Source: a virus
Taxonomy: Duplodnaviria; Caudoviricetes
Direction: 5' to 3' (one strand)
DNA length: 64,000 nt
IMG/VR virus record: IMGVR_UViG_3300005989_000005
Location: 449 to 64,448 of that record
Shown here: one piece after another, positions 3,045-60,748 of the stretch
Numbering within the stretch: the stretch's first letter is position 1
How the letters are laid out: each line of letters starts with the position of its first letter
Notes under the pieces: generated by a model
What the model saw: only the letters and a program-made list of their open reading frames with translations
Databases searched by the model: none
What the model was told of the DNA's origin: nothing
Made by a program: the position numbers and the translations under genes

Positions 3045-3272
3045 TTACATGTAGTCGTCTAGTGATTTTTCTGGAATCCAAAGCTTAAACCTAGAGGAGT
3101 CCCTTGCCGTTGCACAACCCTTATAGATAACAAAGTTCCACTCATCAGAAAACCCCGTTTCAGTATCTGAAACCTTTGCAGGCCAAGTAACATCAGGTTC
3201 AGCTATTTTTAGCTTTTCTATCTGGAAAGCGTCTGTCGGGACTACCCAATCCCCCACCTTAAACTTTGTCAT
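3045..3272 (-). CDS. Tagged microprotein 1 (FKVGDWV start, ends KSLDDYM)
   Basis: 75-aa ORF with shared C-terminal tag. Confidence 0.8.
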   Translation of the reverse strand: MTKFKVGDWVVPTDAFQIEKLKIAEPDVTWPAKVSDTETGFSDEWNFVIYKGCATARDSSRFKLWIPEKSLDDYM

Positions 3273-3280
3273 GATTGTTC

Positions 3281-3511
3281 CTATAGATAATCATCTAGGG
3301 ATTTATCTTCAACAGGGGCGCAATAGAAATACTCTTCCGCCCAAGACCACGGTGGATTGTGTTCAAACCTAATACCGCATCCGTCTACCTCTTTAACAAC
3401 AAAGACTTTGTCTGGGGAGATTCCTTTTTCTAACCATGTGCTGTCCCATGAGTTAGTTTTTAGGTGTTCAGGTTTTCTAAGAACCCTGTCTCCCACTTTA
3501 AAGGTAGTCAT
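3281..3511 (-). CDS. Tagged microprotein 2 (FKVGDRV start, ends KSLDDYL)
   Basis: 76-aa ORF with shared C-terminal tag. Confidence 0.8.
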   Translation of the reverse strand: MTTFKVGDRVLRKPEHLKTNSWDSTWLEKGISPDKVFVVKEVDGCGIRFEHNPPWSWAEEYFYCAPVEDKSLDDYL

Positions 3512-3743
3512 CTAGGTCTTTCTCCAAAACAATACGTTTCCACCTAGCCCCTCTTCCATTGTAACCAGTGTATCTCCACCCTGTATGAGTCCACCGCTCT
3601 AACTTCTTTTCCAGAACACGGTATCTCCCTCCAACACGGTACACAGTAGCATTCTGACTCACACAAATAAACTCCTGATTCTCTAACTCACCCTTGTCTT
3701 TTAGGAGGGACATCTGGTCATAGTCAATGTCATAAGTAGTCAT
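3498..3743 (-). CDS. Tagged microprotein 3 (ends KDLDDYL)
   Basis: 81-aa ORF with shared C-terminal tag. Confidence 0.8.
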   Translation of the reverse strand: MTTYDIDYDQMSLLKDKGELENQEFICVSQNATVYRVGGRYRVLEKKLERWTHTGWRYTGYNGRGARWKRIVLEKDLDDYL

Positions 3744-3954
3744 CTAGGTTCACCTCTACATCTTCAATGATGCGGATTTCTGAATTACGAAGAATGTCCT
3801 CCGTACCAACAACACGCCAAGGAAATATTCTGTCTATTGAAGCAGGGCCTCTATTCATCACCTGTATGACAGCCCCAACCTCAAAAGGTTGATGATGTTC
3901 ATCCATCATCTGCCCTTCATCATCTAACATCCCTAAGAAAACAGCTCTCTTCAT
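3730..3954 (-). CDS. Tagged microprotein 4 (ends VNLDDYL)
   Basis: Likely start MKRAV at 3954; shared C-terminal tag. Confidence 0.75.
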   Translation of the reverse strand: MKRAVFLGMLDDEGQMMDEHHQPFEVGAVIQVMNRGPASIDRIFPWRVVGTEDILRNSEIRIIEDVEVNLDDYL

Positions 3955-3986
3955 GTGACACCCTAAAAAATATTTTCCTGACCCCC

Positions 3987-4014
3987 TTGACAAGAGGTGA
4001 TTTCTGACTATATT
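3987..4014 (+). promoter_or_regulatory. TTGACA-N16-TATATT promoter-like motif, antisense to flanking genes
   Basis: Intergenic; same architecture as motifs at 32734-32761 and 60759-60786. Confidence 0.4.
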
Positions 4015-4039
4015 ATCTTAAGGGTTTGTTTAAAAAAAA

Positions 4040-4423
4040 TTATCCCACCCATTGATAATATCTATTATCTACTATATTACATAGACGTTGATGAGCTGGT
4101 GGTGTAGGCATCTCATAGATGAAGACTTCATGTTCTTCCCCATTAACCTCAGCTACAATCTTCGTACGTTGATACCAATCAGGATGTCCCTCTAGACGAT
4201 CACAACGAAGGACATTATCAATCCCCGCCTCGTAAACCTCTCCAATGATAGGAAGAAGAGGGAGACGTTCTGGATTGATGCTGTGAGGGACAGCCATAGG
4301 AAACCCACAATGGTAGAGGACATAGGGTTTACGAGAGATTGCTTTACCAATAAACTCTGCCCCCTCAAGGAGATGATTGTTCCAATGTCCTCGTTGGAGG
4401 GTGCCATATGTAAAGAGCTTCAA
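4040..4423 (-). CDS. Gamma-glutamylcyclotransferase (AIG2-like)
   Basis: LFTYGTLQRG, IIGEVY, DRLEGHPDWYQR. Confidence 0.92.
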   Translation of the reverse strand: MKLFTYGTLQRGHWNNHLLEGAEFIGKAISRKPYVLYHCGFPMAVPHSINPERLPLLPIIGEVYEAGIDNVLRCDRLEGHPDWYQRTKIVAEVNGEEHEVFIYEMPTPPAHQRLCNIVDNRYYQWVG

Positions 4424-4424
4424 A

Positions 4425-4925
4425 TTAGTCTCCTATTTTATTTAGTTTGGCGAACTCTTTGTATCTCTCTGCTGCTGCGAGATTATAGGCCAGCGCAGCT
4501 TCTTCTTCGGAGTTAAAAGTCCCCAGATGATCTTTATTAATACATGCACACCATTTCCCAGAGCTTTGTGATTTGTAAACCCCTCTGTATTTAGATGTAG
4601 AGCCTTTCCTAGAACCCCTATTTACACAGTTCTGTTTGCCAGTTGCCAGCCGCAGATTTTCGACCTTGTTGTTTGTCTCATCTCCGTCAATATGATCAAC
4701 CTCTTTGTCAGGCCACTCTCCGTAAACAAGTGCCCAAATTACTCTGTGTAAGGCATACTGCTTTCTTTTAAAAGCTACTTTAAAACAGTTAGTCGCCTTG
4801 TGGTACGAGCCTGCCTCTAATGAGGGTTTTCTTCCTATACCAGAGGATAACCAAAACAATTTACCTGATTCGTCATACCTAAAGGTAGCCCTCAACTCTT
4901 CAACACTACAACTCTCTTTTCTCAT
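4425..4925 (-). CDS. HNH homing endonuclease with AP2 domain
   Basis: LHRVIW...EVDHIDGDETNNKVENLR; SKYRGVY...HLGTF. Confidence 0.9.
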   Translation of the reverse strand: MRKESCSVEELRATFRYDESGKLFWLSSGIGRKPSLEAGSYHKATNCFKVAFKRKQYALHRVIWALVYGEWPDKEVDHIDGDETNNKVENLRLATGKQNCVNRGSRKGSTSKYRGVYKSQSSGKWCACINKDHLGTFNSEEEAALAYNLAAAERYKEFAKLNKIGD

Positions 4926-4954
4926 AATATACCATAAGCTTCATCTGTTGTCCT

Positions 4955-5194
4955 TTACATATATTCGTCTAGTTCTTTTTCTGACACGTAGATCACAAAG
5001 CTTGAAAAACTCCAAGAATCGGTTGGATGAACGCTGTGGAAAATGGGGTGTCCGTATACATTTATTTGAGTCACCTTAACTGGTGCAAAAGGGTGTAAAC
5101 CAACTTGTTTACAAGCTTCACACCACAACCTATTTCCAATAGATTCTTCATTAACCCTTACAACACTATCTCCTTCTTTAAATCTCTGCTTCAT
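4955..5194 (-). CDS. Tagged microprotein 5 (FKEGDSV start, ends KELDEYM)
   Basis: 79-aa ORF with shared tag. Confidence 0.8.
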   Translation of the reverse strand: MKQRFKEGDSVVRVNEESIGNRLWCEACKQVGLHPFAPVKVTQINVYGHPIFHSVHPTDSWSFSSFVIYVSEKELDEYM

Positions 5195-5385
5195 TACATG
5201 TACTCATCTAAAGATTTTGAGAGGGGTTTGAGGACTAAGTGTTGACTTTCTTGAGTCAAATCTTTTATATTGAGGATGCGTCTACGACCCTGTCCAGCAA
5301 TGAAAACGTAGTGAAAATCACGATGATGAAAAGATTTTATATAACGATAAGGGAACAGCTCGTTTTTGACACTGACTTCCATCAC
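5194..5385 (-). CDS. Tagged microprotein 6 (ends KSLDEYM)
   Basis: 63-aa ORF with shared tag; stop/start overlap. Confidence 0.8.
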   Translation of the reverse strand: MMEVSVKNELFPYRYIKSFHHRDFHYVFIAGQGRRRILNIKDLTQESQHLVLKPLSKSLDEYM

Positions 5386-5681
5386 ATATACTCCTCTAGC
5401 TCTTTATTCAGAGGTCCATTAACCACTTCTTGAAACAAAGCCTTAAGCTCCCCTGTTGGATCGCCCCTTTCCCAACCTTCGTAAAAGACGGCCCTCATTG
5501 TGGTATAGTGGTCTGGGAGACCTAAGTCTACCCCTGCCTCTGATAAGGCTATCCAATAAAATTCTATAATGTTTGTGGACTGGTCTAACACCGCTTTAAA
5601 AAGCGAGATAACATCAAAATCTTTTTGTCGGTGCGCGGTGAAACCTATTTGTTTCAAATAACCCAAAGCTAGAGGGTGCAT
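5382..5681 (-). CDS. Tagged microprotein 7 (ends KELEEYM)
   Basis: Likely start MHPLAL at 5681; shared tag. Confidence 0.75.
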   Translation of the reverse strand: MHPLALGYLKQIGFTAHRQKDFDVISLFKAVLDQSTNIIEFYWIALSEAGVDLGLPDHYTTMRAVFYEGWERGDPTGELKALFQEVVNGPLNKELEEYM

Positions 5682-5685
5682 CTTC

Positions 5686-5943
5686 TTAGACTTTCCAAAA
5701 AAGACGCAAACTCTCGTGAACAGCATTGAGGTTACGCCAACCAAAATATTCACAGGCTTCCTGATAAGCAGCCTCTCGTGCTTCAATCACATCGAAGGGG
5801 ATGAAGGTGTTAACAGCGTCTTCGTCTAACGCCCTCTGTGCCCTGTTAAGTTGGGCAGCAACGAGATTGAAATCAGAAGAGGGAGTTTCATCCTCCAAAT
5901 AGGCTTTCAACCCTTGGTCAGAAACATGGCTAAAATCGCTCAT
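5686..5943 (-). CDS. Hypothetical early protein
   Basis: 85-aa acidic ORF with SD GAGG. Confidence 0.65.
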   Translation of the reverse strand: MSDFSHVSDQGLKAYLEDETPSSDFNLVAAQLNRAQRALDEDAVNTFIPFDVIEAREAAYQEACEYFGWRNLNAVHESLRLFWKV

Positions 5944-6031
5944 AGAGGGCCTCTCTGTGTTTTAGGTGGGGTAGGTAGGGAAAGGGGCCTAACAACGCTG
6001 TAAGGCCCCTCCCAGCTCGTCTACGGGCCTA

Positions 6032-6406: not shown

Positions 6407-6505
6407 GTGTAGTCTCCATTAAAAGGGAATTTCCTGCCTATCGCAGGTAGTTAGAGCCTAAGCCCTAATTAGCTGTGATAGGAAGAGGGCATTTCTGCCC
6501 CCTCC

Positions 6506-6862: not shown

Positions 6863-6873
6863 ATCAATTTTCC

Positions 6874-7101: not shown

Positions 7102-7133
7102 CTCCCTCTCCTGTGAAAGCTTGCTTGAAAGAT

Positions 7134-7212: not shown

Positions 7213-7218
7213 TAAAGC

Positions 7219-8445: not shown

Positions 8446-8485
8446 GCGTGCGCTTAGGCGCACGGATTTTATGATAGGAAAACGC

Positions 8486-20799: not shown

Positions 20800-22872
20800 A
20801 TGCAAGACGACGAAATGCTTTACGAAAATGAAGGCGTAGACTCCGTTGAAGATAATGAAAAACATTACGACGAGGCTGTAGCTTTTGTTCGTGAGCGTTT
20901 TCATCGGGCACGGGAAAAGCGCCTTGCTGACGAAGTACGTTTCCTTCGTTGCTATCGTAACTTCCGTGGATTGTACGGACCAGATGTTCAGTTCTCTGAA
21001 ACAGAAAAGTCTCGTGTTTTTGTAAAAGTTACTAAGACTAAGGTTCTTGCAGCTTACGGCCAAATCACTGAGGTTTTGTTTGGTCAAGGCCAGTTTCCCA
21101 TTTCTGTGGAAGAAAGTAAACTTCCTGATGGGGTATCAGAAACTGTAAGCTTTGATCCAGCTGCTCCTCCGCAGGCGGCTAAGTCGCAAGGACCAGTCTC
21201 CCCCTTTGGTACAAAGGACGGTCCTCGTCTCCCTCCGGGAGCTACAGCCATTAGTCTTGGTGCTCTTGAAAAGAAACTTGAGCCTATTAAGGACCGTCTT
21301 CAAAATGGTCCGGGTACTACACCTACAGCTGTCACTTTCCATCCTGCACAAATTGCAGCTAAAAAGATGGAAAAGAAAATCCAAGACCAACTTGAAGAAA
21401 GCGGTGCATCTAAACACCTTCGTTCCTCAGCATTTGAATGTGCCTTATTTGGCACTGGTATCCTGAAAGGGCCTATGGCTCTTGACAAAGAATATCCCCG
21501 CTGGAATGACAAAGGTGAATATGACCCACTTAAGAAAGTTGTTCCTACAGTTTCTCATGTCTCGGTTTGGAACTTCTATCCAGACCCTGATGCAGCTAAC
21601 ATGGATCAGACCGAGTATTGTGTTGAACGACACAAAATGTCTCGTAAAGACCTTAAAGACTTAACTAAGCGTCCTTTCTTCCGTGAGACAGCAATTGATA
21701 ATGCAATTGACAGTGGCCCCAACTACCAGCGTGAGTATTGGGAGCATGTTATGGAGGACGGTACGGGGCATCCTGATGTAGAACGTTGGGAAGTGTTGGA
21801 ATACTGGGGCTACATGAGTGCTAAGCATCTTCGTGAGAAAGATGTTCCGGTTGATAAGTCTATCAAAGACGATGACATGGTTAACGTCAATGTTTGGGTT
21901 TGCCATAACGAAATTCTTCGTTTTGTAATGAACCCCTTCCAACCCTCCCGTATCCCTTACTACGCAGCCCCTTACGAAGTCAACCCATACAGCTTCTTTG
22001 GTATTGGTATTGCCGAAAACATGGAAGATACGCAAATCCTGATGAACGGGTTTATGCGTATGGCTGTAGACAACGGTGCCCTCTCTGGCAACCTCGTATT
22101 TGAGATTGACGAAACTAACCTTGTTCCGGGTCAAGACCTTTCGATCTATCCGGGTAAGGTGTTTCGTCGTCAGTCTGGTGCTCCGGGTCAGGCTTTGTTT
22201 GGCACACAGTTCCCTAACGTCTCTCAGCAAAACATGATGCTGTTTGACAAAGCTCGTGTCCTTGCAGATGAAAGCACAGGCCTTCCTTCTTACTCCTATG
22301 GTCAGACACAAATTCAAGGTGTAGGACGTACAGCTTCTGGCATTTCGATGTTGATGAACGCTGCTAACGGTTCTATCCGAACAGTTGTGAAAAACCTCGA
22401 CGACTACTTGCTTGCTCCTCTTGGTAAAGCCCTCTTTGCGTTTAACATGCAATTTGACTTTGACCCGGAAATTAAGGGTGATCTAGAAGTGTCGGCTCGT
22501 GGGACGGAAAGCCTTATGGCTACCGAAGTTCGTAGTCAGCGTCTTATGCAGTTCCTTGGTGTTATCAGCAACCCGATCCTTGCTCCGTTTGCCAAGCTTG
22601 ACCAGATTGTTCGTGAGATTGCAAACTCTCTCGACCTCGATCCTGACAAGGTTACAAACAACATGGCAGATGCTGCCCTACAGGCAGAGGTTCTTAAGGC
22701 CTTCCAGCCCCCTACAGGGCCTCAGGGAGGGCCTCAGACGCCTCTTCCACCGGGTACACAGGCTAATGACACACAAGGCTCTGGTGGCGGTATGATGGGC
22801 ACAGGAAGCGTTCCTACGCCGGGTATGCAGGGCTTCTCTGCTAATAATGGTTCGGGAGCGCCTCCGCAATGA
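20800..22872 (+). CDS. Portal protein
   Basis: 690 aa directly after TerL; podovirus portal motifs (PYEVNPYSFFGIG, DESTGLP). Confidence 0.9.
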   Translation: MQDDEMLYENEGVDSVEDNEKHYDEAVAFVRERFHRAREKRLADEVRFLRCYRNFRGLYGPDVQFSETEKSRVFVKVTKTKVLAAYGQITEVLFGQGQFPISVEESKLPDGVSETVSFDPAAPPQAAKSQGPVSPFGTKDGPRLPPGATAISLGALEKKLEPIKDRLQNGPGTTPTAVTFHPAQIAAKKMEKKIQDQLEESGASKHLRSSAFECALFGTGILKGPMALDKEYPRWNDKGEYDPLKKVVPTVSHVSVWNFYPDPDAANMDQTEYCVERHKMSRKDLKDLTKRPFFRETAIDNAIDSGPNYQREYWEHVMEDGTGHPDVERWEVLEYWGYMSAKHLREKDVPVDKSIKDDDMVNVNVWVCHNEILRFVMNPFQPSRIPYYAAPYEVNPYSFFGIGIAENMEDTQILMNGFMRMAVDNGALSGNLVFEIDETNLVPGQDLSIYPGKVFRRQSGAPGQALFGTQFPNVSQQNMMLFDKARVLADESTGLPSYSYGQTQIQGVGRTASGISMLMNAANGSIRTVVKNLDDYLLAPLGKALFAFNMQFDFDPEIKGDLEVSARGTESLMATEVRSQRLMQFLGVISNPILAPFAKLDQIVREIANSLDLDPDKVTNNMADAALQAEVLKAFQPPTGPQGGPQTPLPPGTQANDTQGSGGGMMGTGSVPTPGMQGFSANNGSGAPPQ

Positions 22873-41442: not shown

Positions 41443-41687
41443 CAAGTTACCTCTAGCATCCAATTATAGTTGTCTTCTAAAGATTCCCACATTGGGGTCT
41501 TGTCGTAGAAAACTAAGTTAGACTTATCACAGGCTAGCACTAATTCTCTAACACCTGCCTCAGGCTCTTTGTAAAAAAGTTTAGCAACCCTGACAATGTC
41601 ATTAAATCTGAGGTGCTTCTTGTCAGGTTGTTCGAGAGTTGCTGCCACCTCTCTTGCCAACTTGTGGAGTTCGCTGTCGTCCATCAC
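41442..41687 (-). CDS. Hypothetical protein
   Basis: 81-aa coupled ORF. Confidence 0.6.
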   Translation of the reverse strand: MMDDSELHKLAREVAATLEQPDKKHLRFNDIVRVAKLFYKEPEAGVRELVLACDKSNLVFYDKTPMWESLEDNYNWMLEVT

Positions 41688-42259
41688 AACCTTTCACTCT
41701 CGAAAGCTGTAATTGTTTTGTTTGATTTAGAGCAGTTTTCGTGTGCTGTCAAAAGTGTTAGATTCCAAGGGACATGCAAACCACAAATACCTTTACCTTT
41801 AAGTGGCACAATATGATCAACATGCCACACTTGGTGGGTTACATCAGATAACGCAGCTCGTATCAAATAAATAAATTGAAGTTTAGCTCTGTCGTCTTCT
41901 GATAGCTTTTTAGTCTGATAACTAATGTTGCGAGACCTTAGACTTTGATACTCTGCGTAACGGTGTTTGTTATTAGCCTTAAAGTTCTTTGACTTGAGTT
42001 TGAACTTCTCTGGATTTTGCTTGTAGGCAACCCTAGATTGTTTTGTTTTTCGTAGCGACTCCTTTGCAAGCCAAGTTGGGTCTTGCTTATTTGTGTGGTA
42101 TTTTTCCTTAGCAAGGGCTTTAACTTTGTCTGGAAATTTTTTATAGTGAGCCTTTACGCAATCTTTGCATCTAGATTGATAGCCAGTTTTTGTCGAAGAG
42201 TTTTTTGAAAACTCCTCACACTCCTTTTCTGATTTACAAGTGCAACAGGTAAGTTTCAT
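41684..42259 (-). CDS. HNH endonuclease with N-terminal Zn finger
   Basis: C..C...F.......G.QSRCKDC; HVDHIVPL...CGLHVPWNL...N. Confidence 0.9.
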   Translation of the reverse strand: MKLTCCTCKSEKECEEFSKNSSTKTGYQSRCKDCVKAHYKKFPDKVKALAKEKYHTNKQDPTWLAKESLRKTKQSRVAYKQNPEKFKLKSKNFKANNKHRYAEYQSLRSRNISYQTKKLSEDDRAKLQFIYLIRAALSDVTHQVWHVDHIVPLKGKGICGLHVPWNLTLLTAHENCSKSNKTITAFESERL

Positions 42260-42984
42260 AACTTTTCTGATTCAAAAGAGATTATCCACTGTTTGCAGAT
42301 GTCACTACGAACAATGTCCTCGATACCAAACTCAATCACTGGGATGTCCATTTGGTATTTCTTAGCAAGGTGGATAATCTTAGATAGACCAGACTGTTCC
42401 TTAATGTCACTCTGTCGTACGTCACCGTTGATGACAACCTTACAGCCCTCACCAATACGAGTGAGGAACATCTTAATCTCTGCTACAGTGGTGTTCTGTG
42501 CTTCGTCTAGAATGACGAAAGCGTTCTTGAATGAACGTCCACGCATAACAGACATTGGGGAGAGTTCAATGTTGCCATTCTTAATCCCCGTCTCCACCAC
42601 GCCTTTACCCAGACGTTCATTAAGGACATCTAAGACAGGGGCTGCCCAAGGACCAAACTTCTCGTTAAGGTCTCCGGGGAAGTAACCAAGGTCTTTGCCC
42701 ACAGACACGTTAGGACGTGTGAGGATGATCTTGTCTACCTGTTTGGTAAGATACATGTTAGCTGCCATACTGGCTGCTAGGAATGTCTTACCTGTCCCTG
42801 AGTAACCACAGACGATGGTTTGAGGAGCTGATTTAAGGGCCTCTAGATAAAGGGCTTGTGCAGCATTAAGAGGTTGTAGGTCGAAAATCTTTCCTACTGC
42901 CTCCTCCCCCGCTTTCTTGTAACGAGAGATACGCTTGCCCCGTGGTTTTTCGAGCATTGTTATTGTCCTTTGGGGTGAGGTCAA
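42256..42984 (-). CDS. phoH: PhoH-like ATPase
   Basis: GYSGTGKT, LTRPNV, GYFPG, MRGRSF, DEAQN, GD.RQSD, IVRS. Confidence 0.95.
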   Translation of the reverse strand: MTSPQRTITMLEKPRGKRISRYKKAGEEAVGKIFDLQPLNAAQALYLEALKSAPQTIVCGYSGTGKTFLAASMAANMYLTKQVDKIILTRPNVSVGKDLGYFPGDLNEKFGPWAAPVLDVLNERLGKGVVETGIKNGNIELSPMSVMRGRSFKNAFVILDEAQNTTVAEIKMFLTRIGEGCKVVINGDVRQSDIKEQSGLSKIIHLAKKYQMDIPVIEFGIEDIVRSDICKQWIISFESEKL

Positions 42985-45328: not shown

Positions 45329-45549
45329 TCATCACCCCCTGCTGCCAGCACCTGTCCAAGACTTTGTAGACGATAGATGGCATAGATTAGGTCACGTCGG
45401 TTTTCAAAGTTGGAGCCGACTTGAACAGTGCCGTCAGATTTTTCGATCAAGAAAATAGCACTGACCACGTCATTTTTTAGCCCGTCAATAAAATTAGAGT
45501 ATTCTTCATCATGTTCGTCTAAGCTGTTTAGCTTCACTACGTTAGTCAT
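45325..45549 (-). CDS. Hypothetical protein
   Basis: 74-aa coupled ORF. Confidence 0.6.
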   Translation of the reverse strand: MTNVVKLNSLDEHDEEYSNFIDGLKNDVVSAIFLIEKSDGTVQVGSNFENRRDLIYAIYRLQSLGQVLAAGGDE

Positions 45550-46069
45550 TAATTACCTCAAAATTAAGTTTTGCAAACTCCCCAAATAACTCTCTGGCAA
45601 GCTTGTCGTAAGCTTTAGCAGCTTCTTCTTCGTTACTAAAAGCTCCAAGTTCAAACCTGTTACCATCTTTATAGACTCTGGCCCTAGGTTTTCCGTGACG
45701 GTCTAACCAAACCCCTTTGTAACGAGAGGTATAGTTGATATTTTTCTTTGCTACATTGTAGTTATTTTGTTGCAGAGAAGCTTCCCTCAAGTTCTCTATG
45801 CGGTTGTCTAACTTGTTCCTGTTAATGTGGTCTAAGGGTGTTGTGGGCCATACCTCTTTGCACAAAAACCAAACAATATGATGTGTTGCAAGCAACACGT
45901 TATCATGACGTACTACACGGTATCCAGTGGCCCCACTTACACAACCACACTCTTGTCCGATCTTAACTCGGTTACTGTTTGCAACTTTCCAATGAAGTCT
46001 CCCTGTGACCTCGTTATAGTCTATAAACTGTTTTAACCTTTCTAAGCTTTCTGTGGGAAGGGTAAGCAT
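45542..46069 (-). CDS. HNH homing endonuclease with AP2 domain
   Basis: LDHINRNKLDNRIENLR; SRYKGVW...LGAF. Confidence 0.9.
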   Translation of the reverse strand: MLTLPTESLERLKQFIDYNEVTGRLHWKVANSNRVKIGQECGCVSGATGYRVVRHDNVLLATHHIVWFLCKEVWPTTPLDHINRNKLDNRIENLREASLQQNNYNVAKKNINYTSRYKGVWLDRHGKPRARVYKDGNRFELGAFSNEEEAAKAYDKLARELFGEFAKLNFEVIND

Positions 46070-46691: not shown

Positions 46692-47174
46692 CTAAAAATT
46701 TGTTCTGGCATATTCTCCAAAAATCTCCTTTGCTAACTCATCATAAGCCAACGCTGCAACTCTCTCCTCCTCGAACATACCTATGTGCAGTTTACTAGAG
46801 CCGTTCCAGATACTCGCCCTCCACTTTTTGCTTTTGTTATGCCAATGCACCCCTTTGAAACTAGAGCTGCCGTTTTTTATTGGTCCCTTATTAAGCATAT
46901 TTTGCCTGTGAGAAACATCACGTAAGTTCTCAACTCTGTTGTCTGCCTTGTCGCCATTAATGTGATCAAGCTCTTGCTCAGGCCAGCAACCATAAGTTAA
47001 AAACCAGACAACCTTGTGGTTAAAGTAAAATCTTTTATTAAGTCTAAAGAAAAGATACCCACGGCTGTGTTTAGTTCCTATTTTATCCCCAACCTTGACT
47101 GAGTTATTAACTCGGATTTTCCAAAAAAGTTCACCTGTATCAGGGTTGCACTCGACAGCGTCTTCAAGAGTCAT
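46692..47174 (-). CDS. HNH homing endonuclease with AP2 domain
   Basis: LDHINGDKADNRVENLR; SSFKGVHW...IGMF. Confidence 0.9.
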   Translation of the reverse strand: MTLEDAVECNPDTGELFWKIRVNNSVKVGDKIGTKHSRGYLFFRLNKRFYFNHKVVWFLTYGCWPEQELDHINGDKADNRVENLRDVSHRQNMLNKGPIKNGSSSFKGVHWHNKSKKWRASIWNGSSKLHIGMFEEERVAALAYDELAKEIFGEYARTNF

Positions 47175-48018: not shown

Positions 48019-48789
48019 TCAATTCACTTGATTGACCACTAGGTTTTCGTCCTTTCCTCGTAGCGAATAACGGGTACGAGACCAACCACCACAGTCTTGA
48101 CATTGCAGACGATGGAACTTACCCACAGAGGTGTAAGCATAGCCACGATATTGCATGTGTTTACCGCCACACTTAGGGCACACAGGGTCTTCACTAGGCT
48201 CTGAGTACACAGCGAGGTTGGGATGGTTAGTGGACCAAGGACGAAGCTTAAGATAGAGGTCTTCGAGGGCTAGGACATCTTTGATGTTATAGTCCTTCAT
48301 TTCTGCCCAAGCCTCATCATTTCCTTTGAGGCATTCCAGCCAGAGGAGAAAGCCGGGGAACTTGGCATGGCCGTCTTTCTTGACGGAGCAATTAAGCACC
48401 CCAGTGAGGTATTCAAGCGAGTTAGAAGGAAACCCAAACTCTCGTTTAGCAATCTTGTAGGTGTCAATCACCTTAAAGGGGGCGGGTGGTTTTAATCCGT
48501 GTACTAACGCCCTTGCTCTGATTTGTTTGAAGTCGAACTCTTCGCCATTGTGAGCAACTGCGAAATCAGCTTCGTTAAGTAGCTCGCAAAGCTTTGAGAC
48601 AATACGACGGTCATTCTCTTTCCTGTTTTCTTCATAGAAGATTTCGTCCCCTCCCAGCCATTTGGCTGAGAAGGACATGATGTGTCCGTGTTGCTTAACT
48701 TGCTTAGGGGAGATGTTTTCTTTCCAGAAGCGCCACACGTAAGCAATCTTGGGAGCTGTTTCAATGTCAATAATGAGGATTTTAGGCAC
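48019..48789 (-). CDS. RNase H-like 3'-5' exonuclease with C-terminal Zn finger
   Basis: IDIET, AHNG..FD, DT, YN..DV, CPKCG...CQDCG. Confidence 0.85.
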   Translation of the reverse strand: MPKILIIDIETAPKIAYVWRFWKENISPKQVKQHGHIMSFSAKWLGGDEIFYEENRKENDRRIVSKLCELLNEADFAVAHNGEEFDFKQIRARALVHGLKPPAPFKVIDTYKIAKREFGFPSNSLEYLTGVLNCSVKKDGHAKFPGFLLWLECLKGNDEAWAEMKDYNIKDVLALEDLYLKLRPWSTNHPNLAVYSEPSEDPVCPKCGGKHMQYRGYAYTSVGKFHRLQCQDCGGWSRTRYSLRGKDENLVVNQVN

Positions 48790-49279
48790 TTACATACTCC
48801 CAGTTATAGTTTTTATAGTGTGCCCTTTCTCCTTTTAAAGCCCGACAAATCCCCGGAGCAGAGAATCCAACAGCTTTACCTTGATTTAAAGACTCTAGAA
48901 ATATAGTTTCTTTAGTATCTCTGTGAGTACCTAGGACAGCTTTAGATAGGTGATGATCTTTACCGACCCTGTCCTTAAACGCTGCTTGTCTCCCTGCGAC
49001 ATAAGAGTGTTTAATATTATAAGAACGGTCACACCACTCTAGGTTTGAGGGTGCGTTGTTAGCTCGGTTAGAGTCTTTATGGTTCACATCGCTGTAGGAT
49101 TTTGTGTTTGGTAGTAGAGCCTCCGCAATATGTCGATGAACAGCTTTCAAGACACCACTGACTACAGCGTAGTAGTACCTGTTTTTGCTGTTGTAAAAAA
49201 GTTTAGTTGGAGAAACGTCTAAATACTCTTCCAAGAGCATTTTTTGTAAAACCAAGGTCTCAGTTAAATTGTTTGTCAT
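48782..49279 (-). CDS. HNH endonuclease (HNH_3 plus NUMOD-like)
   Basis: VHRHIA...VNHKDSNRANN...NLEW...N. Confidence 0.85.
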   Translation of the reverse strand: MTNNLTETLVLQKMLLEEYLDVSPTKLFYNSKNRYYYAVVSGVLKAVHRHIAEALLPNTKSYSDVNHKDSNRANNAPSNLEWCDRSYNIKHSYVAGRQAAFKDRVGKDHHLSKAVLGTHRDTKETIFLESLNQGKAVGFSAPGICRALKGERAHYKNYNWEYVSA

Positions 49280-49550
49280 CAAGCATCCTTTGCAAAGTGT
49301 CTCGAAGAGCAGCTTTACCTGCATATTTCATCAAAAGACGTGCCCCGGTGTAAATAAATTTGCGCGCATCGTACTCTTTCGTTGTGCCATCTTTAACCCC
49401 CCACCTCCATGCAGCTTTTGTGACGTTAGACAGGTGAAAGGAGTCCCCCAACCACTGAGTTTCTCCTTTCCACTCAATTACATCATTAAGCGTTCTGGCT
49501 GTCTCTGGAAGGTCGTAGTAGGCACTAGGACCACCGTCTGACTTAATCAC
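49260..49550 (-). CDS. DUF3310-like conserved phage protein
   Basis: SDGGPSAYY...F..SN..KA..RWG.K. Confidence 0.65.
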   Translation of the reverse strand: MIKSDGGPSAYYDLPETARTLNDVIEWKGETQWLGDSFHLSNVTKAAWRWGVKDGTTKEYDARKFIYTGARLLMKYAGKAALRDTLQRMLDDKQFN

Positions 49551-51346: not shown

Positions 51347-51700
51347 TTAGAGTTTAACTTTTTTAGCTTTTTCTAGGCGGTCTACAACAGAGGCTTCGTA
51401 GAAGGTGACACCAAGTTTTTGAGAGAGAGCCTCAATACGTTTTTGTTCATCTTCTTCTGCCTTCTCAAACATGCTAAGCTCCCTTTGCCCCCTAATTTGG
51501 ACCTCAACAGGTCCAGCATAGGTTTCGTAGGGCTCAATAGTAGAACGGAACTGAACAAAGACGCCTTTAAGTCCAGACTGCTCAGCCTTATCCAGCTTGT
51601 CGTACAACTCACCAAATAGTTGATGGAGGGTTGTCTTATCGTACTCAGTGTACTCGTTTAAGTAAATGTCTTCACCAAACTGAGTTTCTTTCATTACCAA
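51347..51700 (-). CDS. Hypothetical protein
   Basis: 117-aa coupled ORF. Confidence 0.6.
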   Translation of the reverse strand: MVMKETQFGEDIYLNEYTEYDKTTLHQLFGELYDKLDKAEQSGLKGVFVQFRSTIEPYETYAGPVEVQIRGQRELSMFEKAEEDEQKRIEALSQKLGVTFYEASVVDRLEKAKKVKL

Positions 51701-52413
51701 TCCTCGCCATCACCCACATCAAGCCCAGCCTTCGGCTCAGGGGCCTTAGGGGCCTTCATCTCTTTCTGGCTACCCTTGTCCACCTTAGGGGTAGATGCCC
51801 CTCCTAGGGCCTTCTCAAGGGCGCTACCGGGGTAGTCTACAGCCCCTTTGATTTTTTCTTTGATCCAGTCGGGAAAATCATTAAAGACCTCCACATCAGG
51901 GTCATAGAAATCCCACACAAGCGGGGGGTTTTTCAGTTCAGGAGCCTTAGCAGCTTCCTTAGGACGCATAGACGAAACGTTAGCCACCTTCTCGTAGATA
52001 CGGTCTACACCCGGACGCTTGTCAGCTTCCTGAACAATGGTGACTACACAAGGGGCACCAACAAGCTTGGACCAGTCACCATCAGCCGTGTCTTCGGGGT
52101 CGAGGGCGAAATAACGTTTGGTAGATTTGGCTAGATCAGCTTTGAGCGACATGAAGGGAAGCTCTTCTGACAGCCAACGAGGCTTGTCCTCAAGATCATT
52201 ACCTTCTTCATCTTTCATAAACTCGTCCAAAAACTCGTAAGTCAGACGAATTGAAAGCCGTGGAGGCTTAGCCTCGCCTTTGTACTCTCTTTGAGGTTGG
52301 ACACCAAGGCCCACAATCTGCACAAGACGTGCTGGATAGGAACCTGCATCAAGGGGGTCGGGACGTTTCTTATCCGAACCACCAGACATAGGAAGTTTCT
52401 TTGCATTCATCAT
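51694..52413 (-). CDS. Single-stranded DNA-binding protein (probable)
   Basis: G.YPARL...LG.Q; acidic aromatic C-tail GDGEDW; next to the polymerase. Confidence 0.75.
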   Translation of the reverse strand: MMNAKKLPMSGGSDKKRPDPLDAGSYPARLVQIVGLGVQPQREYKGEAKPPRLSIRLTYEFLDEFMKDEEGNDLEDKPRWLSEELPFMSLKADLAKSTKRYFALDPEDTADGDWSKLVGAPCVVTIVQEADKRPGVDRIYEKVANVSSMRPKEAAKAPELKNPPLVWDFYDPDVEVFNDFPDWIKEKIKGAVDYPGSALEKALGGASTPKVDKGSQKEMKAPKAPEPKAGLDVGDGEDW

Positions 52414-54814: not shown

Positions 54815-54817
54815 TCT

Positions 54818-56400: not shown

Positions 56401-56467
56401 GTAAATCTCCAAAGATGATTACAAACAGGGTGGCAACTACAAGAGCAAAAATTACAACCTCAGTCAT
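56393..56467 (-). CDS. 24-aa membrane peptide
   Basis: MTEVVIFALVVATLFVIIFGDLHD; coupled to the sigma stop. Confidence 0.45.
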   Translation of the reverse strand: MTEVVIFALVVATLFVIIFGDLHD

Positions 56468-56916
56468 CGTTCACTCTCCCTGAATCTAGACACGATCTTA
56501 CGAACGTTGTCCTGTGTAAGCCCCAACAAAGGGGCAATCTCAGCATAGGTGTTACCAAGGACAAAATAGCCAAGCAAAGCTTGTTTGTGTTTGGTATTGC
56601 TAACACCCTTGACATAATCACGAAGGTTAGGTTCTTCTTCGTAAGCCAGCAAATCGTTCTCTAGCACAAGATCAATGTCATACATAGGAGGACGTTTCTT
56701 AAGCTCTCGTAAATGCTTCCAGACACAAGAAAAGAGGATTTTGGTAAACCACCCCTTTAATGACCCCTTACGTTTGTCGTATTGGTCAATACAGATCATG
56801 GCCCTTGTGAAAGCATCTTGAACAATGTCTTCTGCAACATCCCAATTTTGTACATAGGGCCTCACCTTAGAGACGAAGGATTTTCGGTAGTTTGTGTATA
56901 AGGTTTCAATATTCAC
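56464..56916 (-). CDS. ECF-type RNA polymerase sigma factor
   Basis: Region 2 AEDIVQDAF.RA...YD...G.LKGW; region 4 TYAEIA.LLGL...NVRKIVSR. Confidence 0.9.
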   Translation of the reverse strand: MNIETLYTNYRKSFVSKVRPYVQNWDVAEDIVQDAFTRAMICIDQYDKRKGSLKGWFTKILFSCVWKHLRELKKRPPMYDIDLVLENDLLAYEEEPNLRDYVKGVSNTKHKQALLGYFVLGNTYAEIAPLLGLTQDNVRKIVSRFRESER

Positions 56917-57143
56917 AGATAATACTCCAAAGGACGATCTGGGGGAGGGCAGAGGTTAAAAACGTGTTTGTCAACCCTATCTACACTGTGCCCAAAGTAT
57001 AACAGCAAATGCTCTTGAATCTCCGGGCAGGGTTTTCCTTCAACTGGCTTGGAGAGGTCGTATTTCATGCTGGTAGCCCAGTTTGTATAGACCCGAAGTG
57101 TAAAATCATCACACTTACTAGGGTCAAAAATATACATCATCAC
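56913..57143 (-). CDS. Tagged microprotein 8 (ends RPLEYYL, variant tag)
   Basis: 76-aa coupled ORF. Confidence 0.7.
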   Translation of the reverse strand: MMMYIFDPSKCDDFTLRVYTNWATSMKYDLSKPVEGKPCPEIQEHLLLYFGHSVDRVDKHVFNLCPPPDRPLEYYL

Positions 57144-57388
57144 AAATATTCCTCAAGCTCTTTAGTTACAAGGGGTAAAGGTGTAAGATCACAGTGTCTG
57201 TACTCGTTGGTACATCCGTTTTCCCACCTGACGGTGTAACAGTAGTCCCCATCTTCATACGCAGCTTGGTCTTCCTCAAAATATGCAAAGATCGTACCCA
57301 GCATGTTGTGGGGGTTGTCGCCATAATCTGCATACTCCTCCTTCCCCCCTTCTGACATTCTTACTCGTGTACCGATTGGAAGCGTCAT
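57140..57388 (-). CDS. Tagged microprotein 9 (LPIGTRV start, ends KELEEYL)
   Basis: 82 aa; SH3-like Y.VRW.NG..N.Y. Confidence 0.8.
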   Translation of the reverse strand: MTLPIGTRVRMSEGGKEEYADYGDNPHNMLGTIFAYFEEDQAAYEDGDYCYTVRWENGCTNEYRHCDLTPLPLVTKELEEYL

Positions 57389-57606
57389 AAGTAATCCTCC
57401 AACTCTTTGTTTACCACAACTGGGTTAAGGTCGTCAATTTCGTACACGTTAGTGGAGTGTCTATCCCAGTGAACCCTGTAGCAAAAATCACCTCTTACTA
57501 TGTATTCAGTGATATTACCGGCCTGACCATGAGGGTTATGGGGAGCGTTCTTGTACCGTCTTTTACCAACTTGTGAGAGAAAGACCTCAGTTCCAATAGG
57601 AAGCAT
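57385..57606 (-). CDS. Tagged microprotein 10 (LPIGTEV start, ends KELEDYL)
   Basis: 73 aa; paralogue of 57140 (NPHG..G.I...Y.V.W...N.Y...DL). Confidence 0.8.
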   Translation of the reverse strand: MLPIGTEVFLSQVGKRRYKNAPHNPHGQAGNITEYIVRGDFCYRVHWDRHSTNVYEIDDLNPVVVNKELEDYL

Positions 57607-57607
57607 A

Positions 57608-59314
57608 TTACACCTCTACGAATCGGCCAGTGTTTTTGTTGTAGAACAGTTGGTATTTACCAGAGCTGCCCCAATTCCTGTCCTCAAGCACACGAAGCTC
57701 TCGTGTGTTACGAACCTCCTCAGGAAGGTCTGGGTCTTTGTTGCCTAGCAAAGCAAGCATTAAGTGACAACTACGTTGCATAGCACGAGAGCCAGCAAAC
57801 TGAGACGAATAGACAGACCCACCCATCTCATGAGAGCAATTACCAAGATCGACGTATTGCTGTTGCTTGTAGAAACTATTACGTTTGTCCTCTGCAATTT
57901 GGCCTTCTGGGGCCTTGAGGTGACAGAAGATGAAGGCTGTGAATTGCATATCAGCAGCCATGCCTGCAAGCTCTTGAGCAAAAGATTGAAGCAGCGTGTT
58001 AGCGTCTCCTGAGTTAACACCATTAGACAACGAAGTAACCGGGTCAACGAAGACAGCTTTAGCCCCCAGCTCTGCTGCTACAGCAATGTCTTTCTTCAAG
58101 CTCTCCCAACCAAGATATTGGTAGAGGTTAAGCATCAGAAGCTTGTCTTTCATAATTCGACCAGCCTCTTCGTAAGCTTCCTCCTCAAAAGGGATTTTGG
58201 GGTCGTGAAAGACCTTACCTGTGAGCTGGTTAGCCAGAAGCTTGTAGGTCATAACGTTAGGTTCTTCTGGTGCTGCCATGAACACCTTAACCTTATCCTC
58301 AGCAATGAAGTGCGCACCAAGAGCGTTCTTCACTGTGGTCTTGCCCATCTTAGTGCCAGCACCTAGGTAGATAGTCTCCCCAAGACGAATGCCACGAAGA
58401 TCGTCGTTCATCTGTTTCCAAGGCCAAGACAGCTCACCATACTTGGCAGGTTCTTTGGCACGTTCGTGAATATCGAATGCTGTGACGATTCGTGTATTCT
58501 TTGGCGTCTCTGAATGGAATGCAATAGCATTGTAGGCTGCCTTAGCCTTGCCTTCAATAAGGGCTTGGTTAGCGTCTTTGGTGGGCAGCTTAGCACTCTT
58601 AGCGTGGGGCAGAGCTAACATAGCTTTCTCCACAGCCCTGCGCCCCGGCTCATCATCGTCAAAGCAAAGAATAACCTCTTTGAAAAGACGACGAATATCC
58701 TCTGCGTGTTTAGTTAACACCTTCTTAGCAGAAGAGGCCCCATGAGGGAGGGAGACGACAGCAGGATGATAGTCAGCATCTCCGTGCATCTCATAGATGC
58801 GGTCAATGGAAGCCATGTCTTCTGGCCCCTCAGTGACAATGAGACGGTATGCACCAGAGGACTTAGCCTGCTCCCAATTAAGGAGGTCACAGTCTCGTGT
58901 GTCCCCAATATTGTAGGGAGGACAGCTCTTGTCCAACACCTTTACGTGGTAGCCTGTAAGCTTCCCGTCTTTGGTGACAGGCCAATAGATTGCTGTAGGA
59001 GTAGTGCCATCACGCTCTGACATAGAGACGTGGGCACCAAATTTAGACAAGGTGGATTCACGAAGCTTACGAACAGGTACATTCACAACTGGGTATGACG
59101 TGACCTCAGCAATCTCGGTTTGGATTTCTTCTTCTGTTTTCTCTTTTCGTTTCGGCATATCGGTGATAGATCGGCCATCTCCGTAAGGATCACGAACAAA
59201 AGTGTCGCACGAAAAACAGTAGCCACTAATAGACCCGTCGTCTTGTGCAAAAACTTTTAAGGCACGTTTTGTACCGCAAGTGTGTGGCAAAGCGTCAATC
59301 TGAACACCCGGCAT
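57608..59314 (-). CDS. Primase-helicase (T7 gp4-like)
   Basis: Zn finger H.C...YCFSC, TOPRIM EGPED/FDDDEPG, Walker A GAGTKMGKT. Confidence 0.93.
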   Translation of the reverse strand: MPGVQIDALPHTCGTKRALKVFAQDDGSISGYCFSCDTFVRDPYGDGRSITDMPKRKEKTEEEIQTEIAEVTSYPVVNVPVRKLRESTLSKFGAHVSMSERDGTTPTAIYWPVTKDGKLTGYHVKVLDKSCPPYNIGDTRDCDLLNWEQAKSSGAYRLIVTEGPEDMASIDRIYEMHGDADYHPAVVSLPHGASSAKKVLTKHAEDIRRLFKEVILCFDDDEPGRRAVEKAMLALPHAKSAKLPTKDANQALIEGKAKAAYNAIAFHSETPKNTRIVTAFDIHERAKEPAKYGELSWPWKQMNDDLRGIRLGETIYLGAGTKMGKTTVKNALGAHFIAEDKVKVFMAAPEEPNVMTYKLLANQLTGKVFHDPKIPFEEEAYEEAGRIMKDKLLMLNLYQYLGWESLKKDIAVAAELGAKAVFVDPVTSLSNGVNSGDANTLLQSFAQELAGMAADMQFTAFIFCHLKAPEGQIAEDKRNSFYKQQQYVDLGNCSHEMGGSVYSSQFAGSRAMQRSCHLMLALLGNKDPDLPEEVRNTRELRVLEDRNWGSSGKYQLFYNKNTGRFVEV

Positions 59315-59329
59315 TATTTTTCCTTCTTA

Positions 59330-59566
59330 TTACATGTATTCGTCTAGTTCTTTGTTAGTCACTGGCTCCAACCTCTCAAACCACTGATGCTGCCACCAAA
59401 CATCAGGCATTAACTCAAGTTGAACCCCCAGAGAGGGGGAAGAGTTAATAACTTCTTGTGGTTTTGTCGGGTTAATGTTGTTGATCACACACTTGTGTAC
59501 CCATATCCCCCAACGTTCTGGAACATCTGTACGACGTTGTAAGATGTCCCCCTCTTTGAACATCAT
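59330..59566 (-). CDS. Tagged microprotein 11 (FKEGDIL start, ends KELDEYM)
   Basis: Start MMFKEG. Confidence 0.8.
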   Translation of the reverse strand: MMFKEGDILQRRTDVPERWGIWVHKCVINNINPTKPQEVINSSPSLGVQLELMPDVWWQHQWFERLEPVTNKELDEYM

Positions 59567-59820
59567 AGCCAGTCCTCCAATTCTGTTTGTGGGTGCACAG
59601 AATAAAAACACCTAACATCCCCCTGCACAAGTTTTCCACCTGAGGTGCGCAGAAATATATTTTCCCTACCCTCTTTGATAAAACCCTCAAAGGTAAAGAT
59701 GGAGTCTTTACCCACCTTGTAACGTTTTTTATAGACATCCCACTTTTTTTGCTGTGTAGGACGAAGATCAGAGGCTTTTCTTTTCAGTGGGGTTCCGAGG
59801 GGCCACACACCTTGTGTCAT
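59563..59820 (-). CDS. Tagged microprotein 12 (ends TELEDWL)
   Basis: 85-aa coupled ORF. Confidence 0.75.
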   Translation of the reverse strand: MTQGVWPLGTPLKRKASDLRPTQQKKWDVYKKRYKVGKDSIFTFEGFIKEGRENIFLRTSGGKLVQGDVRCFYSVHPQTELEDWL

Positions 59821-60053
59821 TACAAGTACTCCTCCAACTCTTTGTCAACAGTGACAGGCACCCAATGGCCTTTTTCTAGGTACAGATTTGCCGGGATAAG
59901 TCTATAAGACCAGTCTTGAGGAACCTCTGCGATGTAAGAGTGACCTTCTTCCCCGACAACCTTAAAAGGTTGGTTTAAATTTACACCATAATCTTTGGCC
60001 CAACGTCTTGTACTACCTCTGTCTTTCTCAGGAACATATCTAACATACATCAC
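59820..60053 (-). CDS. Tagged microprotein 13 (ends KELEEYL)
   Basis: 77-aa coupled ORF. Confidence 0.8.
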   Translation of the reverse strand: MMYVRYVPEKDRGSTRRWAKDYGVNLNQPFKVVGEEGHSYIAEVPQDWSYRLIPANLYLEKGHWVPVTVDKELEEYL

Positions 60054-60283
60054 ATATAGTCCTCTAAATCTTTCTCAGGAGGAACAGGATAGAAGCAATC
60101 CTTAGAAAACCAAACTTTATCCGGCAGTCCATAGTTTGTAAAACTAAACATAAGGTGTTTATCAGAGCTTACAACAGGCTTTAGTTCAACAGGTCGTTTT
60201 GGGTCAAAACCTTTAGATACCATCCACGTATAATGCGCCCTTACTTTAGGGTCTGAGGATTGTTTAAGCAGATACATCATCAC
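60050..60283 (-). CDS. Tagged microprotein 14 (ends KDLEDYM)
   Basis: 77-aa coupled ORF. Confidence 0.8.
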   Translation of the reverse strand: MMMYLLKQSSDPKVRAHYTWMVSKGFDPKRPVELKPVVSSDKHLMFSFTNYGLPDKVWFSKDCFYPVPPEKDLEDYM

Positions 60284-60531
60284 ATATAATCCTCAAGCTG
60301 TTTTCCTACAAGTTTAGTGGGCATAATCTCATCTTGTCTAAAAATGTAAGAGGCAGAGGTGTTACCATTCTTTCCTATATAAGCTGCCTCAATCCTTGAC
60401 CTGTCAAAAGAGGACCAAACAACTTTATATTCAGCAGGCTCTCCCTTTTTAAACCTTTTGAAAGCTGCATTATTTAGGTTGCGTGGGTTGGCAACAATGC
60501 TAACCTTCTCTCCATATCTATAATCCATCAC
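60280..60531 (-). CDS. Tagged microprotein 15 (ends KQLEDYM)
   Basis: 83-aa coupled ORF. Confidence 0.8.
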   Translation of the reverse strand: MMDYRYGEKVSIVANPRNLNNAAFKRFKKGEPAEYKVVWSSFDRSRIEAAYIGKNGNTSASYIFRQDEIMPTKLVGKQLEDYM

Positions 60532-60748
60532 ATGTAATCCTCTAAATCTTTGTCAGGTGGGGTGCAAGGTCAAACATAGTTGACCACCAAGACCCTTGAT
60601 TAATGGCCCCGATTATGGGGTCTGGTCCCAGCATTCCTGTGACAAGCATTGGCTCATAAGGGTCCAGCCCTCTATTCTTACAAGCTGTCATCCAATAACT
60701 TTTAGAGGCCGGGTTTTTCCGTATAATGTATTGACCTACTTTAAACAC
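60528..60748 (-). CDS. Tagged microprotein 16, tag (KDLEDYM) in -1 frame
   Basis: FKVGQYI start; frame 0 stops at 60542, the -1 frame reads PPDKDLEDYM* with its stop overlapping the next start. Confidence 0.7.

Follow-up and report, generated by a model that had tools for sequence, protein, structure and literature searches.

The DNA analysed here, a 64,000-nucleotide stretch referred to as the window, comprises a 64,448-bp phage record (IMG/VR record IMGVR_UViG_3300005989_000005) minus 448 bases and contains sixteen small open reading frames (ORFs), fifteen intact and one with its frame disrupted, which share the C-terminal tail K-x-L-[DE]-[DE]-Y-[ML] on largely different bodies. Comparison of this phage, which will be referred to as W, with its relatives argues for selection on the tail as a peptide. 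We tentatively propose that it represents a selected and flexible address tag on unrelated small proteins, that its codons carry a second function in translation of the next gene, and that one co-evolving reader would recognise it; taken as a whole, this statement falls slightly short of an even chance in our assessment.

A six-frame scan of the window detected 15 intact ORFs, all on the minus strand, ending in L[DE][DE/Y][YW][ML]-stop, and one further copy out of frame. Elsewhere in the window the motif occurred only internally and only twice (at 22396 on the plus and 49234 on the minus strand), and no further ORF ends in this way. A random ORF would end with the motif with a chance of ~1e-5, a rough estimate based on typical residue frequencies. 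An earlier interpretation made from the letters of the window (the sequence-only reading) had listed sixteen tagged small ORFs with their peptides, synonymous variation of the tag codons and no other tagged ORF in the window, all of which agreed with the scan and with the re-read peptides and codons.

Near the left end of the window (in each range the lower coordinate is the stop side), a 75-aa protein of the FKxGD/SH3-like family A (3045..3272) ends KSLDDYM and lies directly upstream of an ATP-grasp gene, followed by a 76-aa member of the same family (3281..3511, KSLDDYL), for which modelling gave a small beta-barrel and a flexible tail. An 81-aa singleton (3498..3743, KDLDDYL) and a protein of at most 87 aa with a homologue in the related genome L092 (3730..3993, VNLDDYL) both contain the ATG of the next gene inside the tag (GATGAC), which fixes Asp-Asp at these two junctions. 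Further tagged genes encode a 79-aa member of family A (4955..5194, KELDEYM), of which a 72%-identical copy is found at a different slot in L021, a 63-aa singleton (5194..5385, KSLDEYM), and a protein of 99 aa if translation begins at the Met supported by alignment with the L092 homologue (5382..5681, KELEEYM), for which the low-confidence helical model (pLDDT 42.7) is too poor to define a fold. Towards the right end, a 76-aa protein (56913..57143, RPLEYYL), coupled to the sigma-factor gene, and a 77-aa protein (60050..60283, KDLEDYM) make up the MMMY pair, and the LPIGT family is represented by an 82-aa protein (57140..57388, KELEEYL), with tag-less body homologues in other phages, and a 73-aa protein (57385..57606, KELEDYL). 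The same region encodes a 78-aa member of family A (59330..59566, KELDEYM) in a slot that is polymorphic in relatives, an 85-aa singleton (59563..59820, TELEDWL) with an identical tail in L021, a 77-aa protein of family B (59820..60053, KELEEYL) and an 83-aa protein of family D (60280..60531, KQLEDYM). Public sequencing runs matching the window cover only small shares of it. One contig of 151 nt, from a metatranscriptome library of wastewater, matches 59459-59609 without a difference; this segment comprises the start of the 59330 gene and the tag of the 59563 gene. Carry-over of DNA is possible, and the match does not establish transcription.

The sixteenth copy, again of family A (60528..60748, minus strand), had been described as frameshifted, and its tag was indeed out of frame: the body frame (60542-60748) stops at 60542, and the tag PPDKDLEDYM is encoded in the -1 frame with its stop at 60528. 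The cause could be traced to the loss of one base in a run of C near 60558, which may be a real mutation or an assembly error. In a lake-metagenome relative (~87% alike) with one extra C at 60558, body and tag are in frame (...FDLAPPPDKDLEDYM), matching the L092 homologue, which ends ...FDIAPPPDKTLEDYM; both bodies cluster.

A motif search of C termini in related phages revealed eight related lineages carrying the tag in genome-specific forms. Phage E, the second tagged lineage, was found via a degenerate junction DNA pattern in ENA assemblies, and L092-L095, L121 and L122 via homologues of the ATP-grasp proteins of W and E; the ATP-grasp protein has more than 1,600 homologues. In phage E (71.5 kb, GC content 37.6%), ten small ORFs end KKLE[ED][YF]M or KPLEDYM and are interleaved with the same enzymes, the helicase, the sigma factor and the polymerase. 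Between E and W, core proteins share 36-59% of their residues (helicase 59%, amidoligase 36%), whereas the tagged bodies gave no BLAST alignment. L092 carries 10 tagged ORFs of the form KxLEDY[LM], which is common to W, L093 carries 9 with mostly YK[LVAP]EDFL, L094 carries 14 with [IV]TSLEEY[ML] and L095 carries 6 with [FY][FY][DE]KEE[DE][MC]L. At least 14 ORFs ending KLTL[EKD]DC[LM] were detected in L121 and ~9 ending [PM]KLED[YF][VI] in L122. The tags of each genome follow their own variant: Cys is penultimate in every L121 tag, those of L122 end in Val or Ile, and homologous bodies in other genomes bear the tail variant of that other genome. An analogous acidic tail, [DE]Y[KR][IVA]DQEP[LM]E[DE]EE[TCV][LI], was found on 15 small ORFs (13 by automated screen) of Sinorhizobium phage phiM6, which has a GGCT gene in the middle of the array and a helicase only 24% identical to that of W. 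In this clade of uncultured phages at least a tenth of the genes carry the tag.

Codon usage was analysed for the last five codons of 59 tags from five phages (W, L092, L093, L094 and E). The information at codon positions 1, 2 and 3 amounted to 1.30, 1.70 and 0.62 bits, respectively, which is the signature of an amino-acid constraint. The invariant Leu is encoded by CTA, TTA, TTG and CTT, and the Ser preceding Leu in L094 by TCT, TCA, AGT and AGC, that is, by both the TCN and the AGY family, which cannot be interconverted by a single silent change. In 16 homologous pairs the last five residues were 69% identical compared to 39% for the bodies, and the residue class was kept at nearly all positions. 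These findings, together with conservation of the tail in distant phages and on tags devoid of a Shine-Dalgarno (SD) sequence, are in good agreement with the earlier inference that the tail would be selected as a peptide, which we regard as highly probable.

The choice of Asp and Glu codons tracks the need for an SD sequence. Where the start of the next gene overlaps the stop (TGATG, TAATG, ATGA), the acidic pair is almost always encoded by GAG-GAN, which places GAGGA 7-9 nt before the overlapping start, and where the next gene is far away or has its own site, GAY-GAY, GAC-GAA or GAA-GAR codons are used. The earlier observation that the LDDY versions contain no SD sequence was correct and turned out to be systematic, GAY codons being found where the next gene has its own site. 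With respect to GAGGA or GGAG within the tag, 31 of the 59 tags are coupled and SD-bearing, 7 coupled without it, 3 uncoupled with it and 18 uncoupled without it; translational coupling in the sense of GGAG or GAGGA located 5-10 nt before an overlapping or abutting start was thus found for 31 of the 38 coupled tags. The tag does not simply follow the SD sequence of the next gene, as the 18 tags that are neither coupled nor SD-bearing keep the peptide. Conversely, 29 of the 42 coupled junctions in W are located on untagged genes that end in unrelated sequences, demonstrating that coupling alone does not create the peptide. Judged from sequence, the tag does serve in ribosome binding, but this function fails to account for it.

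The earlier statement that the bodies are mostly unalignable had to be modified. By BLAST, five of the bodies in W belong to the FKxGD family, two form the LPIGT pair and two the MMMY pair; at the level of profiles, the claim of dissimilar bodies stood. Family A comprised 13 members across phages at E<1e-3 and 21 at E<0.01, two of the latter from phiM6. Tail-less profiles of families B, D and C compared with family A by hhalign yielded probabilities of 4%, 0.5% and 0.1%, respectively, indicating that the tag occurs on at least four families without detectable common origin. A profile search with family A retrieved 291 representative proteins among 1.84 billion, and among the best 150 of these 291 matches the tail L[DE][DE][YFW][LMIV] was present in 57 of 105 small proteins and in none of 45 larger multi-domain proteins. 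The AlphaFold (AF2) model of family A (pLDDT 83.6) shows a small beta-barrel, one helix and, behind a Pro-rich linker, a tail of low confidence. Its best Foldseek matches were the SH3-like domains of HERC2, Tudor, KOW and Mind-bomb, all of them weak (E 0.3-1, TM 0.4-0.5), and the nearest named family in the Atlas is SH3_15. Most tagged proteins begin with an x-x-G-D/T-x-V strand of SH3-like appearance. The LPIGT body was also found without the tail inside larger proteins of unrelated phages. Pfam assigned the tagged proteins to no family, with weak MIB_HERC2/BRWD hints for the LPIGT pair, and PHROGs matched them only to families of unknown function.

Tagged genes occupy four fixed slots between core genes: ahead of the cyclotransferase gene (GGACT, see below), between this gene and the ATP-grasp gene, and on either side of the helicase gene, the amidoligase gene bounding one of these last two slots and the sigma-factor gene the other. 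How many tagged genes are present, which they are and in what order they stand varies from genome to genome, the order differing among W, L092 and L094. In the slot before the helicase, L021 carries a copy of the W 4955 gene in place of the W 59330 gene, with the similarity to W switching at the start codon and at the tag, and its partial helicase is near-identical to that of W as judged by eye. In the lake-metagenome contig, an additional cassette of 242 nt lies beside the tag at 59356/59378, and the remaining matches to W are confined to tag junctions. Tag junctions thus appear to be the places where cassettes are gained and lost. Cassette shuffling through homology had been raised as an alternative role of the tag; cassettes are in fact swapped, inserted and reordered, but the tag DNA is too diverse within one genome (compare AAATCACTAGACGACTACATG and AAAGAGCTTGAGGAATATTTG in W) for cassette exchange to be what selection keeps. 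A full KKLEEYM-stop preceded by ~11 open codons was also found in phage E between the stop of the ATP-grasp gene and the next start (L086:10843-10866; ENA ERZ650287 NODE_45). This solo tag either remains from a cassette that was lost or is a junction retained for ribosome binding.

In contrast to the eight lineages, PA11 and its relatives have no tagged ORFs, and none were found by automated screen in LUZ24, SU10, MW202615, Phriendly and cr108_1. Helicase relatives in IMG/VR (~50% identical) showed no tags within 10-kb flanks, a search of IMG/VR with three tag-junction DNA patterns recovered no clade members, and megablast of both tagged regions against the phage collection gave no match. L048 and L089, which came up in metagenome and IMG/VR scans, were dismissed as single chance matches. 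In bacterial and archaeal genomes the tag-junction DNA pattern revealed no arrays and gave no hint of a host; only a 415-aa Sulfurimonas protein and one Halioglobus ORF matched, both of which we take to be chance matches. The 415-aa protein was also present in vent metagenomes (Sulfurimonas/vent sequences L023, L030, L046, L049, L053, L061, L062, L138, L144 and L148) and ends YYYN[AS]KNLEEYL with a TGATG overlap. A search of the published literature for the motif strings and the enzyme module found no description of such tails.

In the window, the rightward genes are structural and extend over ~12.2-41.4 kb, and all remaining genes are directed leftward. A replication set resembling that of T7, with primase-helicase, family A polymerase, 5'-3' exonuclease and an SSB-like protein, is encoded in the leftward arm, as are a sigma factor, proteins of nucleotide metabolism and an amide-bond module of the phiEco32 type. 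The class II glutamine amidotransferase gene is split by the record ends: its C-terminal part is located at 63212..64000 on the minus strand, its N-terminal part at 1-124 of the window plus the 448 bases preceding it, and residues 1-189 of the L092 homologue map to the record start and 200-466 to the record end. The genome is therefore circularly permuted (effectively circular) and the two groups of tagged genes form a single stretch, as the sequence-only reading had supposed for the circularised genome. Within this leftward stretch all 16 tagged ORFs are interleaved with the following genes, all on the minus strand: the gamma-glutamyl(amine) cyclotransferase gene (GGACT/AIG2-like, 4040..4423), embedded amid tagged genes; the RimK/TTL-type ATP-grasp ligase gene (2158..3033), directly after a tagged gene; two glutamine amidotransferase genes, that of class II described above and that of class I (Peptidase_C26 by Pfam, 143..814); the phiEco32-type COOH-NH2 ligase gene (62364..63209, by Pfam); the Amidoligase_2 gene (60783..61625), directly upstream of six tagged genes; and the T7-type primase-helicase gene (57608..59314), with tagged genes on both flanks. 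The sigma-70-family factor gene (56464..56916, minus strand) begins with a GTG overlapping the stop of the last tagged gene. The nearest cultured relatives of W are the PA11-type Pseudomonas podophages (helicase 52% identical).

Several further features of the leftward arm were observed. A protein of ~300 aa and unknown function is encoded at 747-1655 on the minus strand, a locus at which simple longest-ORF calling is misled by a spurious plus-strand ORF (771-1733); the protein is 58% identical to that of L092, and its gene follows the ATP-grasp gene in W, L092-L095 and PA11. Four HNH(-AP2) homing-endonuclease genes are present (4425-4925, 45542-46069, 46692-47174 and 48782-49324), one of them inserted between a tagged gene and GGACT; those of relatives occupy other slots, e.g., before the helicase in L092. 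A 239-aa protein adjoining the polymerase (51694-52413, minus strand) has an acidic tail with a terminal Trp (GDGEDW) and is probably a gp2.5-type SSB with its own docking tail; the SSB-like proteins of phage E and PA11 end EEEDTSW and DDDIPW, respectively. A second, smaller shared C-terminal peptide at coupled junctions, F-E-S-E-[RK]-L-stop, was found on the minus strand on two adjacent, otherwise different proteins, a 191-aa protein of unknown function (41684-42259) and a PhoH-like ATPase (42256-42984), with ATGA/GTGA overlaps.

How might the tag act? The tail is a short linear motif, (K)-x-L-acidic-acidic-aromatic-hydrophobic-COOH, and according to the model that we favour it would serve as a flexible C-terminal address tag on fast-turnover small accessory proteins of the early/middle operon, the bodies of which would mostly be SH3-like barrels. 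The acidic codons GAG-GAN double as the SD sequence of the next gene, with GAY or GAA used elsewhere and the peptide retained. All tags of one genome would be read by a single co-evolving reader, as suggested by the genome-wide tail variant and by homologous bodies carrying the variant of the genome in which they reside. On the basis of these sequence comparisons we consider such a common reader somewhat favoured, and it is more likely to be phage-encoded than a conserved host machine. The most likely candidate is the RimK/TTL-type ATP-grasp protein encoded in the neighbouring amide-bond module, and the GGACT cyclotransferase might then act as eraser; by analogy with RimK-S6, LysX-LysW and TTL-tubulin, the free acidic tail would serve as substrate or handle. 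That this pair is the reader is speculative, and we regard it as possible only. RimK, LysX and TTL act on acidic protein C termini. W, L092, L093 and L094 share the order tag-tag-GGACT-tag-tag-ATP-grasp, and the ATP-grasp protein of W scores 168 bits against that of E and 37 against that of PA11, whereas other core genes are equally similar to both. The ATP-grasp proteins of W and E pass the Pfam cut-off for RimK (W also that for TTL), whereas that of PA11 falls below it, and PA11-type genomes possess neither GGACT nor tags. The modular address-tag system proposed earlier fits the non-homologous bodies, the flexible tail and the dialects, and its link to the ligases consists of neighbourhood and patchy co-occurrence.

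Several findings argue against the ligase pair as reader. The enzyme module is present without tagged ORFs in PA11, LUZ24, SU10, MW202615, Phriendly and cr108_1, and the tagged proteins can therefore not be the general substrate of the module. GGACT itself occurs in the tagless LUZ24, SU10 and MW202615, which weakens it as a tag-specific partner, and no GGACT Pfam match was recorded in 20 kb of L121. Fragment L123 carries an ATP-grasp gene of the W/E type and no tags within its visible 14 kb, and the ATP-grasp protein of phiM6 is no closer to that of W than that of PA11 is. The known substrates of RimK, LysX and TTL end in Glu, whereas no phage tail does so, the last residue being Leu, Met, Val or Ile. 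Moreover, the neighbourhood does not single out the ligases, as tagged genes also adjoin the helicase, the sigma factor and the polymerase. The dialects, for their part, could partly result from past homogenisation of cassette ends and not from co-evolution with a reader. An extended version, in which the RimK/TTL-type ligase, reversed by GGACT, would extend or conjugate the carboxyl end of all proteins bearing the dialect, so that SH3-like and other domains would be switched, cross-linked or delivered jointly, is in our view unlikely. If it were true, such a ligase-GGACT code would be the equivalent in phages of tubulin tyrosination or of the carrier chemistry of LysW.

The tag might instead dock the small proteins on a non-enzymatic hub, be it by SSB-type mimicry for the polymerase or helicase, on a host machine, or as a procapsid cargo peptide for co-injection. 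The SSB and T7 gp2.5/gp4 tails likewise combine an acidic stretch with an aromatic or hydrophobic C terminus, the SSB-like tails of W, E and PA11 are comparable, tagged genes adjoin the helicase gene as well as, in E, that of the polymerase, and genome-specific dialects would fit a co-evolving phage-encoded pocket. PA11, however, has the same replisome genes without tags, and nothing links the early-operon proteins to the capsid, which leaves docking on a hub rather doubtful. An exposed, flexible tail with a hydrophobic end, as in the model, restricted to accessory early/middle proteins and never found on core enzymes, would also suit a C-terminal degron that limits these proteins to a short, timed life via a host or phage protease. 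The tail differs, however, from the known signals for ClpX, Lon and tail-specific proteases and does not resemble LAA-type tails. Genome-specific dialects such as the penultimate Cys in every L121 tag are not expected from conserved host proteases, and no protease gene was noticed in the module; we consider a degron improbable.

An equally poor prospect is that the conserved element is the nucleic acid, i.e., a portable initiation and coupling cassette combined with a recombination boundary, the peptide being a by-product of a frame locked by stop and start. This would account for GAGGA 7-9 nt ahead of the overlapping start in most tags, for the different family A cassette that L021 holds exactly between two tag junctions, for the insertion in the lake contig, for the variable cassette order among W, L092 and L094 and for the solo tag of phage E that precedes a gene start without a body. 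It does not predict that third codon positions vary freely while the first and second are fixed, that Ser is drawn from both codon families, that uncoupled tags without an SD sequence keep the peptide while coupled untagged junctions lack it, or that the tag DNA of W is too dissimilar for homologous exchange. Finally, there might be no separate tag at all, the tail being the best-conserved end of one divergent paralogue family and part of its fold. The SH3-like beginning of most tagged proteins and the 21 proteins linked by family A, two of phiM6 among them, point in this direction. Nevertheless, tail-less profiles of families B, C and D gave no match to family A, the model shows the tail with low confidence behind the Pro-rich linker, and LPIGT and SH3 bodies devoid of the tag are found as domains within larger proteins, making a single family very improbable.

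Under the address-tag model, the tag would mark the accessory, probably host-directed, repertoire of these phages, and each genome would offer a 7-residue peptide as an affinity handle for its reader. If the reader were the ATP-grasp/GGACT pair, the tagged proteins would be the first protein substrates for a module that is present in hundreds of phages and has been unexplained since 2009. The use of the same codons as peptide and as ribosome-binding site, with Asp or Glu set by the neighbouring gene, moreover provides a clean natural example of an overlapping code. The phenomenon is possibly general among phages, the clade of W being a particularly large and clear case.

Among known systems, RimK-S6, LysX/ArgX-LysW and TTL-tubulin share with the phages a RimK/TTL-family ATP-grasp gene adjoining genes of small acidic-tailed proteins, and the phage operon also contains amide-bond-cleaving and amidotransferase genes. 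Those systems rely on a single substrate or carrier with a terminal Glu, whereas each phage has 10-16 different proteins ending in Leu, Met, Val or Ile. Much as LysW adjoins a RimK-family ligase, a tagged gene directly precedes the RimK-family ATP-grasp gene in W and E, but the phage tails lack the C-terminal EDWGE of LysW, and the family A model, a beta-barrel plus helix without a visible Cys4 pattern, is no Zn-ribbon. The Glu-Glu at the C terminus of S6 is likewise absent, the acidic pair of the phage tails being followed by two hydrophobic residues. The phiEco32-type module itself, with COOH-NH2 ligase, Amidoligase_2, ATP-grasp, class I and II glutamine amidotransferases and GGCT, was recognised in W as a co-directional enzyme set by Pfam and by synteny with PA11 and phiM6; most phages with this module, unlike W, have no tagged small proteins. 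The module (Iyer et al. 2009, as cited in PMC6256558 and PMC10580990) has been proposed to act in cell-wall modification or metabolite synthesis, and neither of these two papers mentions tagged small proteins.

The tip of SSB (DDDIPF) and the tails of T7 gp2.5/gp4 resemble the tag in their acidic stretch, their free aromatic or hydrophobic C terminus and their flexibility, and these known tails dock. In SSB and T7, however, one tail serves many partners, whereas in the phages many proteins carry one tail, and the tagged bodies are not OB-fold SSBs, W having the SSB-like gene of its own mentioned above, whose tail (GDGEDW) differs from the tag. Coupled junctions and shuffling of the T4 PeSL type have in common with the tag an SD sequence inside the upstream ORF, the overlap of stop and start, and cassettes that are swapped and reordered; they differ from it in that the phage tag is conserved at the amino-acid level, persists without coupling, and has junction DNA that is poorly conserved within a genome. 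With the bacterial beta-clamp motif QL[SD]LF there is no agreement, K-x-L-[DE]-[DE]-Y-[LM] having no Gln and a different spacing, and none of the leftward genes scanned in W was recognised as encoding a sliding clamp. To our knowledge, only few systems exist in which a shared C-terminal peptide addresses many unrelated proteins to one reader, such as clamp binders and encapsulin cargo. The consensus of the phage tag differs from the T4 clamp-binding motifs and encapsulin cargo peptides, but the arrangement is alike: one C-terminal peptide is found on several unrelated proteins, which in those systems share a single receptor.

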